Source: Zoogloea sp.
GTDB lineage: Bacteria; Pseudomonadota; Gammaproteobacteria; Burkholderiales; Rhodocyclaceae
Direction of reading: 5' to 3'
Length of the DNA: 64,000 nucleotides
Assembly (NCBI RefSeq): GCF_041914405.1
Contig: NZ_JAYSDK010000020.1
Coordinates: 11,077-75,076 of the forward strand
In this document: piece after piece, positions 25,801 to 46,643 of the stretch
How positions within the stretch are numbered: position 1 is the first letter of the stretch
How the letters are laid out: each line of letters begins with the position of its first letter
The notes under the pieces: generated by a model
Seen by the model: only the letters and a program-made list of their open reading frames with translations
What the model was told of the DNA's origin: nothing
Databases searched by the model: none
Program-made: the position numbers and the translations under genes

Positions 25801-25917
25801 CCGCTCGGCGTGACGATGGTCGGTGGCCTGCTCGTCAGCCAGGTGCTGACGCTGTTCACCACGCCGGTGATCTACCTGGCCTTCGATCGCCTCGCACGGC
25901 GGGGGAGGGCGGCATGA
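22846..25917 (+). CDS. mdtB: RND efflux permease, MdtB family
   Basis: [65 protein letters not shown]. Confidence 0.94.
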
Positions 25918-26099
25918 TGCCCGTGGTGGACGGGGATTCATTTGCCCCGGGTGGGCAGATCGACGTCCGCGGGCGAATGAATTCGCCCCAACAGGGGTGG
26001 GCGTGGTGGTTTGTTGTTGGGGCGAATTCATTCGCCCTCCAGTGGCTCCGCAGCGAGCCGGAGTCCGGCGACATGCTCTGGCAGGGCGGCGCGCGATGA
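25914..26099 (+). repeat. REP-like palindrome cluster between mdtB and mdtC, forming a 61-codon bridging ORF
   Basis: GGGCGAATGAATTCGCCCCAACA (25971-25993) and its inverse TGTTGGGGCGAATTCATTCGCCC (26015-26037); degenerate copy near 25928; AGGGCGGC repeated at 25906 and 26083; ATGA overlaps at both ends. Confidence 0.8.
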
Positions 26100-29184: not shown

Positions 29185-30756
29185 ATGAAGAAGATGAACG
29201 CGATGGCCCAACTGGCGGTCGACCCTGTCGGGAAGCGTCCCGCTGGGGGGGCGCCACTGGGCAAAAACTCGGGGGGCAATGGGGGTGGGGGGGCTAAAAC
29301 ATCCGCCCTAGCGGTTTTTATCACGCGCCGGGGGCGAAGGAATTCGCCCCTACGGGTCGTGTTGCCCTGCCTTTTCCTGGCCGCATGTACCGTCGGCCCC
29401 GACTACGTGCGGCCGACGGTGGAAACCCCCGCGGCCTTCAAGGAGGCGGCCGGCGACTGGCGCCCGGCGAGCCCGCAGGACCCGGTTTCCGGCGATACCT
29501 GGTGGACGGTGTTCGGCGATCCGGTGCTCAACGGCCTGCAGGCCAAGGTGGACATCTCCAACCAGAACCTGCGCGCCGTCGAGGCCCAGTACCGCCAAGC
29601 TAGGGCGCTGGCCGATTCGGCCCGTTCGTCGTGGTTCCCGACCATCAACGGCACTTTCGGCGCGACGCGCTCGGCCAGCGCGGCGTCCACTGCCAGCGCC
29701 GGCAACGCGCCGCCGGTCAACAGCTTCAGCCTTGGCGCCACCGCCAGCTGGGAGGCCGACGTGTGGGGGCGCATCGCCCGTAACGTGGAGGCGGCCGACG
29801 AGCGGGTGCAGGCCAGCGAGGCGGATCTCGCTGCCGCCCGCCTGTCTGCCCATGCGACGCTGGCCCAGACCTACTTCCAGCTGCGCGCGGCGGACCGCCA
29901 GAAGGCGCTGCTCGACGCGGCGGTGGCGGCCTACGAGCGCTCCCTTGAACTGACCCGCAACCGTTACGCCGCCGGCGTCGCCACCAAGGCGGACGTGGCC
30001 CAGGCGGAAAGCCAGCTGCGCAGCACCCGCGCGTCGGCGCTGGATGCCGGCCTGTCGCGCAGCCAGTATGAGCACGCCATCGCGGTGCTGATCGGCCAGG
30101 CGCCGTCCAGCTTTGCGCTGCCGCCGGTGGCGGGCCCGCTTGCCGCCGCGCCGGTCACGCTGACGCTGCCGTCCACGCTGCTTGAGCGGCGCCCCGACAT
30201 CGCCGCCGCCGAGCGTCGTGTGGCCGCCGCCAACGCGGCTGTCGGCGCAGCCCAGGCGGCGCGCTTCCCGGTGCTCGGCCTGTCCGCATCCACCGGTTTT
30301 CGCCGCTCGCAGATCGAGGATCTGCTGACCGTGCCGAGCCGCTACTGGTCCCTCGGCCCGACGCTGGTGGCGACGTTGTTCGACGCGGGCGCCAAGAAGG
30401 CCGCGGTGGGCCAGGCTGTCGGCGTCTGGGAGCAGGCCGTGGCGACCTACCGACAGACCGTGCTGGCGGCGTTCCAGGAAGTGGAGGACAACCTCGCCGC
30501 GGTGCGCGTGCTGGAGGAGGCCGGCGTCGAGCAGGCCGCCGCCGTGTCCGCCGCTGCCGAGGCCGAGGCCATCGCCCTCAACCAGTACCGGGCCGGCACC
30601 GTCAGCTATCTCAACGTCGTCACCGCCCAAGCCACACACCTCAGCGCCCAGCGCAGCGCCAGCGATCTGGCGGCGCGCCGGCTGGTGGCGGCGGTGCTGC
30701 TGGCAAAGAACGCCGGTGGTGGGGTGGGCGGGAAGCTGCCGGAGGCGCGCAACTGA
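29185..30756 (+). CDS. Outer-membrane factor lipoprotein (NodT/OprM family) with an unusually long N-terminus
   Basis: Lipobox LFLAAC-TVGPDYVRP at residue 68; WEADVWGRI, LLERRPDIAAAERRV, AFQEVEDNL; in-frame TTG at 29179 overlaps the mdtC stop. Confidence 0.9.
   Translation: MKKMNAMAQLAVDPVGKRPAGGAPLGKNSGGNGGGGAKTSALAVFITRRGRRNSPLRVVLPCLFLAACTVGPDYVRPTVETPAAFKEAAGDWRPASPQDPVSGDTWWTVFGDPVLNGLQAKVDISNQNLRAVEAQYRQARALADSARSSWFPTINGTFGATRSASAASTASAGNAPPVNSFSLGATASWEADVWGRIARNVEAADERVQASEADLAAARLSAHATLAQTYFQLRAADRQKALLDAAVAAYERSLELTRNRYAAGVATKADVAQAESQLRSTRASALDAGLSRSQYEHAIAVLIGQAPSSFALPPVAGPLAAAPVTLTLPSTLLERRPDIAAAERRVAAANAAVGAAQAARFPVLGLSASTGFRRSQIEDLLTVPSRYWSLGPTLVATLFDAGAKKAAVGQAVGVWEQAVATYRQTVLAAFQEVEDNLAAVRVLEEAGVEQAAAVSAAAEAEAIALNQYRAGTVSYLNVVTAQATHLSAQRSASDLAARRLVAAVLLAKNAGGGVGGKLPEARN
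29331..29353. repeat. REP-like palindrome inside the outer-membrane factor signal region
   Basis: GGGGCGAAGGAATTCGCCCCTAC, near-identical to the 25971 and 43135 copies. Confidence 0.75.
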
Positions 30757-41504: not shown

Positions 41505-41891
41505 ATGGCCAAGACTTTGATCAACTGGTTCGAAATCCCCGTCGCCGACCTGGAGCGGGCGGTCCGTTTCTACGAGGCGACTTTCGCGGTCAGCCTGCGC
41601 CGTGAAGAGATGCATGGCATGCAGATGGCAGTTTTTCCCTACGTCGAGCCGGCGACCGGCGGGGCCTTGCTGGCCGCGCCGCAGGCCCGGCCTGGCGAAC
41701 AAGGCATCCTGATCTATCTGGACGGGGGCGACGACCTCGCGGTGCCGCTGGCCCGGGCGGTGGAGGCGGGCGGGGAGGTCTTGCTGCCGAAGACCGAGAT
41801 CAGTCCGGAGATCGGCTATATCGCGATGTTCGCCGACAGCGAGGGCAACCGCATCGGGCTGCACTCGCCGGGTGCCGCCGCTCAGGGGTGA
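41505..41891 (+). CDS. VOC (glyoxalase/bleomycin-resistance) family protein
   Basis: GAAGGAG RBS; INWFEIPVADLERAVRFYE; GYIAMFADSEGNRIGLHS. Confidence 0.9.
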   Translation: MAKTLINWFEIPVADLERAVRFYEATFAVSLRREEMHGMQMAVFPYVEPATGGALLAAPQARPGEQGILIYLDGGDDLAVPLARAVEAGGEVLLPKTEISPEIGYIAMFADSEGNRIGLHSPGAAAQG

Positions 41892-43243
41892 TCGTGCTCG
41901 CCGTGCTCGTCGTCGTCCATGTCCAGCGCCCACAGCTGGTGGGCGTCGAGGAGCAGGCGGTAGCGGGCTTCGCTCGCGTCCAGGCGGGCCAGGCTGGCGG
42001 CCAGGCGCGTCTCGTGGGCCAGGCGGCGGGCGTTGAGGGTGTCGGAAAGACTGCCTTCGCCGAGCTGCCAGGCCCGTTCACTGAGGTCGGCACTGCGCAT
42101 TAGCGCGTCGGCGGCGGCCTGCTGGCCGAGCCAGCCCGCGCGGGCTGCGGTCGCGCGGCGGTACAGGGCGGCGGCCTCAGCCTCGATGCGGCGCTGGATG
42201 CCGGCCTCCCGGTGGGCGCTGGCCTGGGCGGTGGCGACGGCGGCGTCTGCATCGGCACGGCGGCCTTCGCCGGGCAGTGGCAGGCTGAGGGTCAGGCCGA
42301 CCAGGCGCTCCTCGCCGTCCCGTTCGCGGGCGACACGTACGCCGACGCTCGGGTCGGGGCGCCGTTCAGCTTCGGCACGGGTCGCGCCGATGCGCGCCCG
42401 CAGGCTCTCCGAGCGGGCGACGCCCAGCTCATGGTTGTGTTCGAGGATCGCCGCGACCCACTTGGCGGGATCCTGCTCGATCGCCTCCGGCGCCACTTCG
42501 GGCACGCTGTCGGGCAGGTTCAGCGCGGGATACAGGCGGCGCAGGCTCTCGGCGGCCACCTGGGCGCGTCCTTCGGCTTGGGCCAGCTGGGCCTCGGCCT
42601 GGGCCAGCGCGGCGTCGGCCTGTAGTCTTTCCAGGCGCGGGGCATCCCCAAGTTCGACTCGGCGCTTCACCACGCCGGCCTGGCGGGCCAGCACGTCGCG
42701 CTGCTTGCGCCATTGCTCGGCGCTGGACTGCTCGCGCAGCCAGTCGAACCAGCCGGACAACAGCGCCCGGCTGGCCTCGTGCAGCGCGTCGCCGCGGCTG
42801 ACCTTGGCGCTGGCGACGCCCGCGGCACCGAGCTGGCGGTCCAGCTCGCCCTTGCCGGGCAGGCGCAGCGCACGTTCGAGCGCCACGTCCACTTCGTTGA
42901 AGCGTTCGGCCGGTGTCGTGCGCACGCGGCGTTGCTGCTCAGTGACCCGCAGTGTCCATTCGTGGGGGCCGGCGGCGAGGCGCCGGCTGCGTGCCTCTTC
43001 GGCTTCCAGCATGGCGCCGGCGGCGCTGACCATCGGGCTGCTGCGCAGCACGCTGGTCACCTGGGCTTGGGGCGGAAGGTCCGGCGCGTCAGCGGCCGGG
43101 CCGGCGAGGGCCGCAAGAGGGAAGAGCACCACCAGTAGGGGCGAATTCATTCGCCCACGGATGTTGAACAGGCGTTGGGCGAATGAAGTCGTCCCCATGG
43201 GTGCAGTGGCCGCCTCGGGAGAACAATGCGTGTGCTGCTTCAT
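41882..43243 (-). CDS. czcC: TolC-family outer-membrane factor of a Czc-type system
   Basis: ATGA overlap with DUF3240; helical OMF repeats, RRPDPSVGVR, VGLTLSLPL; His-rich tail DDDEHGEHDHP. Confidence 0.82.
   Translation of the reverse strand: MKQHTHCSPEAATAPMGTTSFAQRLFNIRGRMNSPLLVVLFPLAALAGPAADAPDLPPQAQVTSVLRSSPMVSAAGAMLEAEEARSRRLAAGPHEWTLRVTEQQRRVRTTPAERFNEVDVALERALRLPGKGELDRQLGAAGVASAKVSRGDALHEASRALLSGWFDWLREQSSAEQWRKQRDVLARQAGVVKRRVELGDAPRLERLQADAALAQAEAQLAQAEGRAQVAAESLRRLYPALNLPDSVPEVAPEAIEQDPAKWVAAILEHNHELGVARSESLRARIGATRAEAERRPDPSVGVRVARERDGEERLVGLTLSLPLPGEGRRADADAAVATAQASAHREAGIQRRIEAEAAALYRRATAARAGWLGQQAAADALMRSADLSERAWQLGEGSLSDTLNARRLAHETRLAASLARLDASEARYRLLLDAHQLWALDMDDDEHGEHDHP
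43135..43198. repeat. Inverted REP-like pair inside the 5' end of czcC
   Basis: GTAGGGGCGAATTCATTCGCCC (43135-43156) and degenerate GGGCGAATGAAGTCGTCCCCAT (43177-43198). Confidence 0.78.
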
Positions 43244-43560
43244 GCGAGCCTCCCGCTGGCCATGACCGGAACCATCCAGAAAAACACCCGGTTGGTGCCG
43301 AAGCGTTCGCGCAGGATGTCGAGCAGGGCCTGTGCGTCGCCGAGCGGGGCGACCAGCTCGACCCGGCAGCAGGCGGCGCGGCCACGCACGTGCTCGGCAG
43401 TGCCGATGAAGGTGACCCGCTGGCCCTGGCCTTCGACGCGCTGGGACGTGAAGCCCGGCGCCAGCGTCGGGTGTTCGAGCAGGGTTTCAAGCAGCGCGTC
43501 TTCCACCTCGATGGGCAACACCAGGGTCAGCACGACATGGGATGGGGTATCGACGATCAT
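43240..43560 (-). CDS. DUF3240-like (PII-fold) accessory protein
   Basis: ATGA overlaps on both sides; LTLVLPIEVEDALLETLL...GFTSQRVEGQG...EHVRGR...FFWMVPV. Confidence 0.75.
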   Translation of the reverse strand: MIVDTPSHVVLTLVLPIEVEDALLETLLEHPTLAPGFTSQRVEGQGQRVTFIGTAEHVRGRAACCRVELVAPLGDAQALLDILRERFGTNRVFFWMVPVMASGRLA

Positions 43561-46500
43561 TGACTTGCAACCTCGGGGGCGACGGGGGCGATGCCGAAAC
43601 GGCGGTACAGGACGGGGAGCAGCAGCAGCGTCAGGGCGGTGGCGCTGACCAGCCCGCCGATCACCACGACGGCCAGCGGACGCTGGACCTCGGAACCCGG
43701 GCCGGTGGCGAACAGCAGTGGCACCAGGCCGAGGGCGGCAATGTTGGCGGTCATCAGCACCGGGCGCAGACGGCGCTTGGCGCCTTCCACGACGACTTCG
43801 GCGATGGGCATGCCGCGGGCGTGGAGCTGGTTGAAATAGCTGACCATCACCACCCCATTGAGCACTGCGATGCCGAGCAGGGCGATGAAGCCCACCGAGG
43901 CGGGTACCGACATGTATTCGCCGGATACTGCCAGCGCGAGCACCCCGCCGACCATCGCGAAAGGCACCATCGACAGCACCAGCAGCGCCTGGCGCACGGA
44001 GCCGAAAGTGGAGAACAGCAGCACGAAGATCAGCCCGAGGGCGATCGGCACCACCACGATCAGGCGGGCGGCGGCACGCTGCTGGTTCTCGAACTGCCCG
44101 CCCCAGGCGAGGCGGTAGCCGTTGGGTAGCGGCACCTTGGCGGCCACTGCGGCGCGGGCTTCCTCTACGAAGCCAACCAGGTCGCGGCCACGCACGTTGG
44201 ATTGGATCACCGAGTAACGCTGGGCATTCTCCCGATCCACCTTGACCGGACCGTCCACCCGCTCGACCTTGGCAATGCTGGATAGCGGCAGGCTGTGGCC
44301 GTCCGGTGTGGTGACGCGCAGTGCGGCGAAGGCCTCCGGATCGTTCTGCAGGTTGGCCGGGCCGCGGATCAGCAGCGGCACGCGGCGGGTGGATTCGATC
44401 ACGGTACCCGCGATGCGCCCTTCGAGCAGGCTGCGCAGGGTGTTCTGCACGTCCTCCACGTTGAGGCCGAAGCGACCGGCGGCCAGGCGGTCCACCTGGA
44501 TCTTCAGGTATTGCACGCCCTCGTTGCGGATGGTGACGGTGTCCTCGGCGCCGGGCACAGCCTTCACGACGCCTTCGATCTGCGCGGCGAGGTGGTTGAG
44601 GGTGTTCAGGTCCGGGCCGTAAAGCTTGATGGCCAGGTCGCCGCGCACGCCGGTCAGCATCTCCGACACGCGCATGTCGATGGGCTGGGTGAAGGTCAGC
44701 GCGATGCCGGGGAAGTTCTCCATCACGGCCCGCAGCTGGTCGGTCAGCCAGTCCTTGTCCGGCTTGCGCCATTCATCGCGGGGCTTGAGGACGAGGAAGG
44801 TGTCGGTCTGGTTGAGGCCCATCGGGTCGAGGCCCAGTTCGTCAGCGCCCGAGCGCGCCACCACGGCCTTCACTTCCGGTACTGCCTTGAGCACGGCCCG
44901 CTGAACGCGCAGGTCGGTGTCGATGGTCTGGGCCAGGCTGATCGAGGGCAGCTTTTCGAGCTGCATGATGATGTCGCCTTCGTCCATTGTCGGCATGAAG
45001 GTCTTGCCGAGGGTGACGAAGGCACCGGCAGCCACCAGCAGCGAAACGCCGGCCACCGCGGCGACCAGCTTGGCGCGGGCCAGCGCGAATTGCAGCAGCG
45101 GCGCGTAGGCCGCCTGCAGCTTGCGGATCAGCCAGGGCTCATGGGCCTCGCCGCGCTTCAGCAGGTAGGATGCCAGCACCGGTACGACGGTCAGCGACAG
45201 CAGCAGCGAGGCCGACAGCGCAAACACGATGGTCGTCGCCACAGGGCCGAACAGCTTGCCTTCGAGGCCCTCCAGCGTCAGCAGCGGCAGAAACACGATG
45301 ACGATGATGAGGATGCCCGAGGCGACCGGCGCGGCGACTTCCCGGGTGGCGCGGAAGACCAGGTGGAGCAGCGGCTGGCGGCTGGCGGCGCCGCCTTCGC
45401 CGAAATGGGTCTCGATGTTCTCGACCACCACCACCGCGGCGTCCACCAGCATGCCGATGGCGATGGCCAGACCGCCGAGGCTCATCAGGTTGGCCGACAG
45501 GCCCACCTGGCGCATGGCGATAAAGGTGGCCAGCGCTGCCAGCGGCAGCATCAGCGCCACCACCAGCGCGGCACGCAGGTTGCCGAGGAAGGCCAGCAGC
45601 AGCACCAGCACCAGCACGATGGCTTCCATCAGCGCCTTCGACACCGTATGCACGGCACGGCCGACCAGCTCGCTGCGGTCGTAGAAGGGCACGACTTTCA
45701 CGTCCGGTGGCAGTTGTGGCGCGAGTTCGGCTAGGCGCGCCTTGACACCGTCCACCACCTTGCCGGCATTGGCGCCGCGCAGGCCGAGGACCAGGCCTTC
45801 GACCGCCTCGCCCTCGCCGCTGCGGGTGACTGCGCCGTAGCGGGTCAGCGCGCCGATGCGTACCGCGGCTACGTCGCCGACGCGGACCACGTTGCCGCCG
45901 TCGCTCTTCAGCACGATGGCGCGCACGTCGTCCAGGTTGCGGATGGCGCCTTCGGCACGCACCAGCAGGGTTTCCTCGCCTTCGCTGAGACGGCCGGCGC
46001 CGTCGTTGCGGTTGTTGGCTTCCAGCGCAGCCTGCAACTGGGCCAGCGTCAGGCCGCGGGCGGCAAGGGCCGCCGGGTCGGGGGCGATCTCGAAGCTGCG
46101 GGCCTCGCCGCCGAGGCTGTTCACGTCAGCCACGCCGGGCACCGTGCGCAGGGCCGGGCGGATCGTCCAGTCGAGCAGGGTGCGCTTCTCTTCGAGGGAG
46201 ATCGGCCCTTCGATGGTGAACATGAACATCTCGCCGAGAGGCGTGGTGATCGGTGCGAGGCCACCGCTTGCGCCCGGCGGCAGGTTGCCCATTACGCCGG
46301 CCAGGCGTTCGCCGACCTGCTGGCGGGCCCAGTAGATGTCGGTGCCGTCCTCGAAATCGAGGGTCACGTCGGCCAACGCGTACTTGGAAGTGGAGCGCAG
46401 GATGCGCTGGTGCGGAATGCCCAGCATTTCCTGCTCGATGGGCACGGTGATCCGGGTCTCGACCTCTTCCGGCGTCATGCCCGGGGCCTTGATGATCAGC

Positions 46501-46643
46501 TTGACCTGGGTCGTCGATACATCGGGGAAGGCGTCGATGGGCAGGCCGTTCCAGGCCTGCACGCCGGCGCCGATCAGCAGCAAAGTGGCGACCAGCACCA
46601 GCAGGCGCTGGGTCAGGGAGAACTCGATGAGGCGGGACAGCAT
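43557..46643 (-). CDS. czcA: CusA/CzcA-family heavy-metal RND permease
   Basis: LPIDAFPDVSTTQV, TPEEVETRITVPIE, MSLGGLAIAIGMLVDAAVVVVENI, GIAVLNGVVM, RLRPVLMTA. Confidence 0.93.
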   Translation of the reverse strand: MLSRLIEFSLTQRLLVLVATLLLIGAGVQAWNGLPIDAFPDVSTTQVKLIIKAPGMTPEEVETRITVPIEQEMLGIPHQRILRSTSKYALADVTLDFEDGTDIYWARQQVGERLAGVMGNLPPGASGGLAPITTPLGEMFMFTIEGPISLEEKRTLLDWTIRPALRTVPGVADVNSLGGEARSFEIAPDPAALAARGLTLAQLQAALEANNRNDGAGRLSEGEETLLVRAEGAIRNLDDVRAIVLKSDGGNVVRVGDVAAVRIGALTRYGAVTRSGEGEAVEGLVLGLRGANAGKVVDGVKARLAELAPQLPPDVKVVPFYDRSELVGRAVHTVSKALMEAIVLVLVLLLAFLGNLRAALVVALMLPLAALATFIAMRQVGLSANLMSLGGLAIAIGMLVDAAVVVVENIETHFGEGGAASRQPLLHLVFRATREVAAPVASGILIIVIVFLPLLTLEGLEGKLFGPVATTIVFALSASLLLSLTVVPVLASYLLKRGEAHEPWLIRKLQAAYAPLLQFALARAKLVAAVAGVSLLVAAGAFVTLGKTFMPTMDEGDIIMQLEKLPSISLAQTIDTDLRVQRAVLKAVPEVKAVVARSGADELGLDPMGLNQTDTFLVLKPRDEWRKPDKDWLTDQLRAVMENFPGIALTFTQPIDMRVSEMLTGVRGDLAIKLYGPDLNTLNHLAAQIEGVVKAVPGAEDTVTIRNEGVQYLKIQVDRLAAGRFGLNVEDVQNTLRSLLEGRIAGTVIESTRRVPLLIRGPANLQNDPEAFAALRVTTPDGHSLPLSSIAKVERVDGPVKVDRENAQRYSVIQSNVRGRDLVGFVEEARAAVAAKVPLPNGYRLAWGGQFENQQRAAARLIVVVPIALGLIFVLLFSTFGSVRQALLVLSMVPFAMVGGVLALAVSGEYMSVPASVGFIALLGIAVLNGVVMVSYFNQLHARGMPIAEVVVEGAKRRLRPVLMTANIAALGLVPLLFATGPGSEVQRPLAVVVIGGLVSATALTLLLLPVLYRRFGIAPVAPEVASQ

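Follow-up and report, generated by a model that had tools for sequence, protein, structure and literature searches.

A REP doublet within the leader-coding region of a Zoogloea czcC gene is probably translated

A 64,000-nucleotide (nt) stretch of DNA from Zoogloea sp. (contig NZ_JAYSDK010000020.1, hereafter called the window) carries on its minus strand a czc operon for an efflux pump of the resistance-nodulation-division (RND) type. The gene for its outer-membrane factor (OMF), czcC, contains two inverted repetitive extragenic palindromic (REP) elements between its start codon and the region coding for the hydrophobic core of the signal peptide. On the basis of allele comparisons, we propose that this REP doublet is most likely a tolerated passenger that is translated along with the leader. 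Below we describe the junction and its alleles, the REP family to which the doublet belongs, and the alternatives that we have weighed.

The czcC junction and its palindromes

The genes of the czc operon overlap one another. The czcA stop codon and the DUF3240 start codon share an ATGA at 43560-43557, and the czcC ATG (43243-43241) overlaps the DUF3240 TGA (43242-43240) in a second ATGA, both on the minus strand. A Shine-Dalgarno-like GGGAGG ahead of czcC falls within the last codons of the DUF3240 gene. From the coupled ATG, the czcC open reading frame (ORF) opens with MKQHTHCSPEAATAPMGTTSFAQRLFNIRGRMNSPLLVVLFPLAALAGPAAD. Its product is classed as CzcC-type because of its OEP repeats and its position after czcB-czcA-DUF3240, a gene order that is the same in loci L001, L003, and L005. 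In a protein search, the closest protein is that of Zoogloea sp. LCSB751 (94% identity), and orthologues are mostly 419-425 amino acids (aa) long. A metagenome scan for czcC relatives returned two loci.

An earlier first-pass annotation of this DNA reported an in-frame REP pair directly after the DUF3240/czcC overlap, and on this point the sequence, the ORF, and an inverted-repeat search agree. The search delimits a distal arm (43176-43203), a spacer (43158-43175), and a proximal arm (43130-43157), wherein the 28-nt arms are 82% complementary and stand 18 nt apart. The cores of the two REPs span 43138-43156 and 43177-43195, in a register of 39 nt. Each arm carries the palindrome GGGCGAAT(G/T)(A/C)ATTCGCCC, and the distal arm has two core mismatches. 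The proximal REP has a GTAG head at 43135-43138 and forms a full copy, GTAG-GGGCGAATTCATTCGCCC, at 43135-43156 (both on the plus strand). The element thus has the form of a GTAG-type REP, in which a short, imperfect palindrome is capped by a GTAG (GTRG) tetranucleotide outside the stem. As is characteristic of REPINs, the two inverted copies pair into a single long hairpin in the minimum-energy fold. With up to three mismatches allowed, the window contains five sites for the motif GGGCGAATKAATTCGCCC, amounting to 10 strand-matches, compared to 0.08 expected from shuffled sequences.

The leader encoded from the coupled ATG includes the REP-coded residues ..GTTSFAQRLFNIRGRMNSP.. and, by inspection, has features of a Sec leader. 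These include an RGR before the hydrophobic core LLVVLFPLAALA, which aligns with the leader of REP-less orthologues (alignment A1, N-termini), and an end that reads ALA|GP. The n-region, at 35 aa, is atypically long. The coordinates of these and other features are collected in Table 1.

Table 1. Features of the czc and mdt loci in the window. Abbreviations: OMF, outer-membrane factor; ORF, open reading frame; REP, repetitive extragenic palindromic element.
Feature	Position	Strand	Remarks
czcA-type RND transporter gene	43557..46643	minus	1028 aa; ORF list and sequence; orthologous gene table with PF00873
DUF3240 gene	43240..43560	minus	106 aa; Pfam PF11582, E=7.9e-23
Shine-Dalgarno-like GGGAGG	43249..43254	minus	5 nt upstream of the coupled ATG; alignment A1 and junction listing
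Coupled czcC start (ATG of ATGA)	43241..43243	minus	matching position and context in REP-less L003, L117, L119, L121 and REP-bearing L001, L116, L118, L005
czcC ORF	41882-43243	minus	453 aa, TolC/OEP family; Pfam PF02321, E=4.1e-19
REP doublet in czcC (REPIN-like, heads outward)	43130..43203	minus	codons 14-38, read ..APMGTTSFAQRLFNIRGRMNSPLLV..
Internal ATG (Met16)	43196..43198	minus	degenerate head of the distal REP
Internal ATG (Met32)	43148..43150	minus	loop/stem edge of the proximal REP; lacks a ribosome site; start candidate of the first-pass annotation
Hydrophobic core and A-x-A end	43103..43138	minus	codons 36-47, LLVVLFPLAALA, probable cleavage ALA|GP; by inspection
Mature CzcC-type OMF	41882..43102	minus	Pfam OEP; codon comparison
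REP doublet in the mdtB-mdtC spacer	25971..26037		cores 25971-25989 (+) and 26019-26037 (-); spacer 178 nt
Single in-frame REP in the Mdt outer-membrane lipoprotein leader	29332..29350	+	RGRRNSPL, read at 29329-29352

At the RNA level, a 171-nt region spanning the doublet folds at -82.7 kcal/mol (z = -5.0), with both REPs in one hairpin. Searches at the REP pair matched neither an Rfam family nor anything resembling a promoter or terminator. In the same minimum-energy fold, the GGGAGG at 43249-43254 pairs with CUCUUCCCUCUU (43114-43125, minus strand) just downstream of the REPs, and this pyrimidine tract is not conserved in LCSB751. Metatranscriptome contigs, which are of mixed strains from biofilm samples, break or diverge at the REP borders (43135, 43138, 43156, and 43239), and one contig skips 43112-43238. 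Environmental Zoogloea populations are therefore polymorphic at the czcC junction.

Alleles with and without the insert

In the REP-less loci L003, L117, L119, and L121, the czcC ATG overlaps or abuts the DUF3240 stop codon, and a ribosome site is found 5 nt upstream (GGGTGG in L117, GGGAGG in the others). These genes encode short classical leaders such as MKRRLLAIVVAALPLWAHA (MKRRLLA...). By comparison, the window and LCSB751 carry about 87 nt (approximately 29 codons) of extra sequence directly after ATGAAGC in alignment A1. Relative to a leader of the REP-less type, the insertion separates the basic residues from the hydrophobic core.

Five REP-bearing alleles were compared, namely those of the window, LCSB751, L116, L118, and L005. 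The distance from the ATG to the PDLP motif is 159, 159, 147, 153, and 162 nt, respectively, whereas it is 75-108 nt in REP-less genes. In all five alleles this distance is a multiple of three and free of stop codons, and the ATGA and the ribosome site (GGGAGG or GGGAGA) are kept, although four lengths are represented. Thus, in each case the insert has the form of an in-frame intragenic element, in that its length is a multiple of three, it lacks stops, and the frame of the host gene continues.

The internal ATG codons are less well preserved. The first-pass annotation had suggested that the start codon of czcC may come from the REP, and the ATG at 43150 indeed lies inside the palindrome (43150-43148, minus strand). 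In LCSB751, GTG replaces both internal ATGs (Met16 and Met32), and the alleles L118 and L005 have no ATG at these positions. The junction listing for L005 contains no ATG, GTG, or TTG between the second REP and the hydrophobic core. Because the frame is kept from the coupled ATG, LCSB751 has GTG at both sites, and L005 has no later start, a start donated by the REP is unlikely. The REP-less orthologues, moreover, already have the coupled ATG behind GGGAGG as their start, and the proposal of a donated start is not supported. The "MNS" N-termini of P0032 and P0033 were also considered as possible REP-donated starts, and were set aside because the DNA there reads ATGAACAGC directly after a TGA and contains no REP.

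Codon comparisons with LCSB751 distinguish the insert from the rest of the gene. Within the first 36 codons, 5 changes are synonymous and 4 non-synonymous, versus 64 synonymous and 21 non-synonymous changes in the 406 codons of the mature region, where 75 of 93 substitutions are at third positions. The G+C content at third codon positions (GC3) is about 0.67 in the insert (hand count) versus 0.87 in the mature part. These patterns indicate that mature CzcC is under purifying selection and clearly functional, and that the insert is weakly constrained.

Given these observations, the coupled ATG at 43243 is the most likely start codon, and we consider it probable that ribosomes translate the REP pair into part of a long n-region. 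We envision that a GTAG-type REP doublet, of the kind that REP-associated tyrosine transposases (RAYTs) mobilize, entered czcC a few nucleotides past the start codon. Insertion between the basic N-terminal residues and the signal-peptide core would have added approximately 29 stop-free codons. Translation would still begin at the ancestral ATG, coupled to the DUF3240 stop codon and behind GGGAGG, and ribosomes would read through both REPs to produce the long n-region from REP-coded residues. The RGR encoded by the proximal REP would take the place of the ancestral KRR, thereby keeping positive charge beside the hydrophobic core. Finally, the leader would presumably be cleaved after ALA47 to leave mature CzcC unchanged. 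In this account, the anatomy, the ancestral start, the conserved frame, the repeated insertion, and the general placement of the family are observed, while use of the coupled ATG, cleavage of the leader, and neutrality of the insert are inferred. The insert could survive in czcC because, where the genes of an operon overlap, nothing but a cleavable leader would tolerate it. For L005, as for the Mdt gene of the window discussed below, there is no adequate later start codon, so export of the protein would require that the REP be translated.

Several considerations weigh against this proposal. The case for use of the coupled start is a comparative one. The ribosome site overlaps the codons for the conserved GRL C terminus of the DUF3240 protein, which could by itself account for the conservation of the site. 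Gene callers prefer long ORFs; L116, which was recovered by tblastn, is free of this bias. If the length of the element is intrinsically a multiple of three, then no selection is needed for the initial in-frame state, and only the later in-frame changes in length (two or three events) argue for translation. In addition, a REP-internal ATG in the window and in L116 could yield a short and maybe workable leader (MNSPLLVV.. and MNLPLRFLLL.., respectively), making dual initiation possible. Lastly, at 35 residues the n-region exceeds what is usual for a Sec leader.

The REP family and other outer-membrane-factor leaders

One genome per species was scanned with the pattern GGGCGAAKGAATTCGCCCC. At least 110 REP loci were found across genomes, including at least seven in Zoogloea sp. 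LCSB751. Among the matches listed, the taxa include Zoogloea, Pseudomonas/Stutzerimonas, Chromatiaceae, Gallionella, Methylococcales, and others. The oriented consensus for Zoogloea is TCCGCGGGCGAATGAATTCGCCCC[C/T]AC, which corresponds to a REP with a GTAG or GTGG head. Opposed copies, again among the matches listed, have a register of 42 nt in 34 of 76 pairs, and in 70% the register is a multiple of three. Registers of this kind make doublets unusually easy to translate in frame. In each orientation, a single frame out of three is closed by a stop (GGC GAA TGA, or the TAG of the head). Because of this single stop frame per orientation and the 42-nt register, a doublet is readable in two of three frames. 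At L067:1414-1433, the TAG of the GTAG head is itself the stop codon of the upstream gene.

The placement of the family was classified with our own GC3-based gene finder, whose classes are approximate (it missed czcC in L001). In 80 high-GC loci among the matches listed, the genes on either side of a REP cluster are co-directional in 61 cases, convergent in 22, and divergent in 3, and one further cluster is in a gene core. The median distance from the REP to the upstream stop codon in these loci is 32 nt (interquartile range 16-51), and 13 further Zoogloea loci are alike in placement. Among the same matches, a start codon at the upstream stop together with an open frame through the REP was found at only 2 of 64 co-directional sites, both of which are OMF genes of the window. 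The remaining sites that look open through the REP have an obvious ribosome site and an ATG after it.

Location just after a stop codon is therefore a rule of the REP family rather than a preference for coupled junctions or efflux operons. The first-pass annotation had proposed a targeting or retention bias for coupled junctions. Targeting is not supported, given the general post-stop placement in the 80 loci and the rarity of coupled read-through, whereas retention stands in a weaker form, in that an in-frame insert in a cleavable leader survives. Such retention would be special to overlapping genes because they leave no spacer, and only in-frame copies in a disposable leader survive.

No RAYT gene is present in the window, as had been noted before, and tblastn with a Zoogloea RAYT gave no match in the 64 kb. 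The search for a cognate transposase proposed in the first-pass annotation led to a 149-aa ORF at L062:2285-2734 in a Zoogloea metagenome-assembled genome. This ORF matches Pfam Y1_Tnp at 30.7 bits (cutoff 23), has the HxH and Y motifs, and sits between two inverted REPs, at 2251-69 (+) and 2734-52 (-). Homologues of its product carry the name REP-associated tyrosine transposase or RayT in their source records. These sequence features indicate that the REP family has a cognate RAYT in the genus Zoogloea. Within L062:2251-3152, the RAYT gene is followed by a REP array at a spacing of approximately 112-115 nt (2795, 2910, 3022, and 3134).

An identical 19-nt REP core is found in Betaproteobacteria (Zoogloea, Gallionella, and Sulfurimicrobium) and in Gammaproteobacteria (Pseudomonas indica, Stutzerimonas, Chromatiaceae, and Methylococcales). 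Some of the same taxa, for example Pseudomonas indica, Methylobacter, and Chromatiaceae, are also sources of named RAYT homologues that are about 58-66% identical to the Zoogloea protein. This suggests that the REP-RAYT pair is old or horizontally shared.

REPs have entered leader regions of OMF genes more than once. A maximum-likelihood tree of mature czcC-type regions requires three independent REP gains. One is in the clade formed by the window, LCSB751, L116, and P0004 (support 100/98). Another is in P0020, sister to the REP-less P0019 (98/95), and the last is in P0055, a 53%-identical homologue with a REP-coded leader. Most czcC orthologues have no insert. Among 33 close czcC and approximately 60 Mdt OMF orthologue clusters, no N-terminus was found to be truncated by an out-of-frame insert. 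In the more distant OMF homologues P0220, P0229, P0113, and P0119, the leader core is likewise preceded by a long N-terminal extension; these extensions are unrelated and may derive from other repeat families.

The Mdt operon of the window offers a second case. Its OMF ORF starts with an ATG at 29185, two nucleotides after the mdtC TGA (29180-82) and without overlap, and the lipobox Cys codon at 29386 is residue 68, giving a leader of 67 residues. After the REP, the only start-like codons (GTG/TTG) sit 9 residues before this Cys. Zoogloea Mdt OMF orthologues range from an ancestral length of 464-465 aa (MKKPALIPALIAVLLSAC) up to 474-521 aa. In-frame REP-coded leader peptides are seen in P0123 (VGANSFAQGGGFHLRGRMNSPL), in P0132 and P0136 (VGANLFA..GRTSSPL), and in P0129 (VGATSVA..GRLKSPL). 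The leaders of P0131 and P0200 (GDFSRP..ATEVAPT) correspond to the second frame of a REP variant. Upstream of the in-frame REP, positions 29240-29300 of the window are an odd, G-rich, low-complexity stretch, where LCSB751 has a clean second REP (L122:289-307); it seems that the upstream REP has degenerated or been replaced in the window.

The remaining doublet, between mdtB and mdtC, is crossed by a 61-codon micro-ORF (25914-26098, plus strand) that reads RGRMNSP and GANSFA. Its ATG overlaps the mdtB stop codon as ATGA, the frame stays open through the doublet, and a second ATGA occurs at the mdtC start. As the first-pass annotation had pointed out, the RGRxNSP peptide of czcC recurs, both here and as RGRRNSPL in the frame of the Mdt OMF. 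However, the spacer in relatives measures 13 nt (L125) or 382 nt (L124) with no overlap, and the micro-ORF is not conserved. We regard this doublet as an ordinary intra-operon placement. The further claim that all five clear REP copies of the window sit just after stop/start overlaps needs correction, since mdtC and the Mdt OMF gene do not overlap, and the ATGA of mdtB overlaps the non-conserved micro-ORF rather than mdtC. A target-site duplication at mdtB/mdtC (AGGGCGGC before both ATGAs) was considered and set aside; relatives have no overlapping mdtB-mdtC junction.

Alternative explanations and relation to known elements

One alternative is that the REP provides a functional start, such that czcC is translated from 43150 (or 43198), possibly besides the coupled start, with the segment from 43243 to the REP being a short upstream frame or untranslated. 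An in-frame ATG is present in the REP loop in both the window and L116, the L116 leader would be plausible (MNLPLRFLLLALLPVTVLA), and a start at 43150 yields a protein of 422 aa, near the usual orthologue length. Moreover, Di Nocera et al. judged most REPs at the 5′ ends of ORFs to be non-coding misannotations (PMC3733652). However, neither internal ATG is preceded by a ribosome site, a strong hairpin encloses the one at 43150, and the leader that this ATG would give (MNSPLLVVLFPLAALA) contains no basic residue. The internal ATGs are also absent from LCSB751, L118, and L005, as described above, and an untranslated spacer would not need the frame of the coupled ATG to be kept through four lengths. 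We therefore consider this alternative unlikely.

Quite unlikely, in our estimation, is that the doublet is kept for its RNA hairpin, which would lower or buffer CzcC relative to CzcBA and DUF3240 and so set subunit ratios. The hairpin might do so by slowing ribosomes, by uncoupling translation, or by shielding upstream mRNA from 3′ exonucleases. REPs of E. coli stabilize upstream mRNA and attenuate translation, and the entry of REP doublets at the same czcC-type place three times, as well as in the Mdt OMF leader, agrees with such a role, as does the single long hairpin with its z of -5.0. On the other hand, the arms are decaying, with two core mismatches in the distal arm, one degenerate REP in L116, and no REP matching the core in L118. 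This decay fits a passenger better than a selected hairpin. Furthermore, a change in LCSB751 converts an A-U pair of the stem into a G-U wobble, most orthologues are insert-free, and ribosomes melt a translated hairpin. Some effect of the hairpin on CzcC output is nevertheless possible. A bolder version appears improbable to us: that the doublet is pre-adapted as a signal-peptide n-region and has been repeatedly captured at the 5′ end of overlapping OMF genes as a selected module, in which hairpin and long leader together set the amount of OMF per RND pump. The features that would make it pre-adapted are a register that is a multiple of three, two of three open frames, and one frame that encodes a basic peptide ending in (M)NSPL. 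Most improbable of all is that the insertion disabled czcC or its export and that the gene is decaying. The unusually long leader and the poor codon adaptation of the insert (GC3 of about 0.67) might suggest this, but the mature region carries the mark of purifying selection (64:21, with 75 of 93 substitutions at third positions), and the ORF is intact in five of five REP-bearing alleles.

Many characteristics of the czcC doublet are familiar from REP elements described previously. GTAG-tagged REPs, REPIN doublets, and their mobilization by RAYTs have been reported (Nunvar et al. 2010, PMC2817692; Bertels and Rainey 2011, PMC3116915; Di Nocera et al. 2013, PMC3733652). Like these, the Zoogloea family consists of short imperfect palindromes with GTAG/GTRG heads that form inverted doublets with preferred spacing. 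Its members lie a few tens of nucleotides past a stop codon, where the flanking genes are co-directional or convergent, and a 149-aa Y1/HUH transposase lies between inverted REPs in a congeneric genome. In contrast to typical GTAG REPs, the czcC copy resides in frame inside an ORF, between the start codon and the signal-peptide core.

Intragenic precedents exist as well. Di Nocera et al. (2013, PMC3733652) reported that GTAG REPs follow coding regions and also described copies inside genes, among them doublets that code for 20-30 residues and copies at the N-termini of ORFs, although they mostly ascribed the N-terminal copies to misannotation. Rickettsia provides the classic in-frame palindromic elements (PMC10969869). 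The czcC doublet resembles both the intragenic REPs of Di Nocera et al. and the Rickettsia palindromic elements in being an in-frame palindrome, often found as a doublet of 20-30 residues, that leaves the gene intact. It departs from the published N-terminal REPs in that its alleles argue for translation, and from the Rickettsia elements, which stay in mature proteins, in that it lies in a cleavable leader and leaves the mature protein untouched.

A comparison can also be drawn with E. coli, where intra-operon REPs or bacterial interspersed mosaic elements, for example at malE-malF, are located in untranslated spacers. In both settings a REP hairpin between cistrons has the potential for differential expression. 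However, the czc operon has no spacer, and an effect on expression here is only potential. A full-text literature search for REPs together with signal peptides returned nothing specific. Thus, the czcC locus is a well-supported new example of the intragenic REPs already described, and it involves no new mechanism.

The locus appears to offer a clean comparative case of translation through a REP doublet at an ORF's 5′ end, a class usually dismissed as misannotation. Its persistence is explained if the cleavable leader acts as a safe harbour in operons of overlapping genes. For annotation, start calling and signal-peptide prediction in REP-rich genomes can err in either direction. For the genus itself, the length of the leader at the czcC and Mdt OMF junctions is a hypervariable strain marker in Zoogloea.

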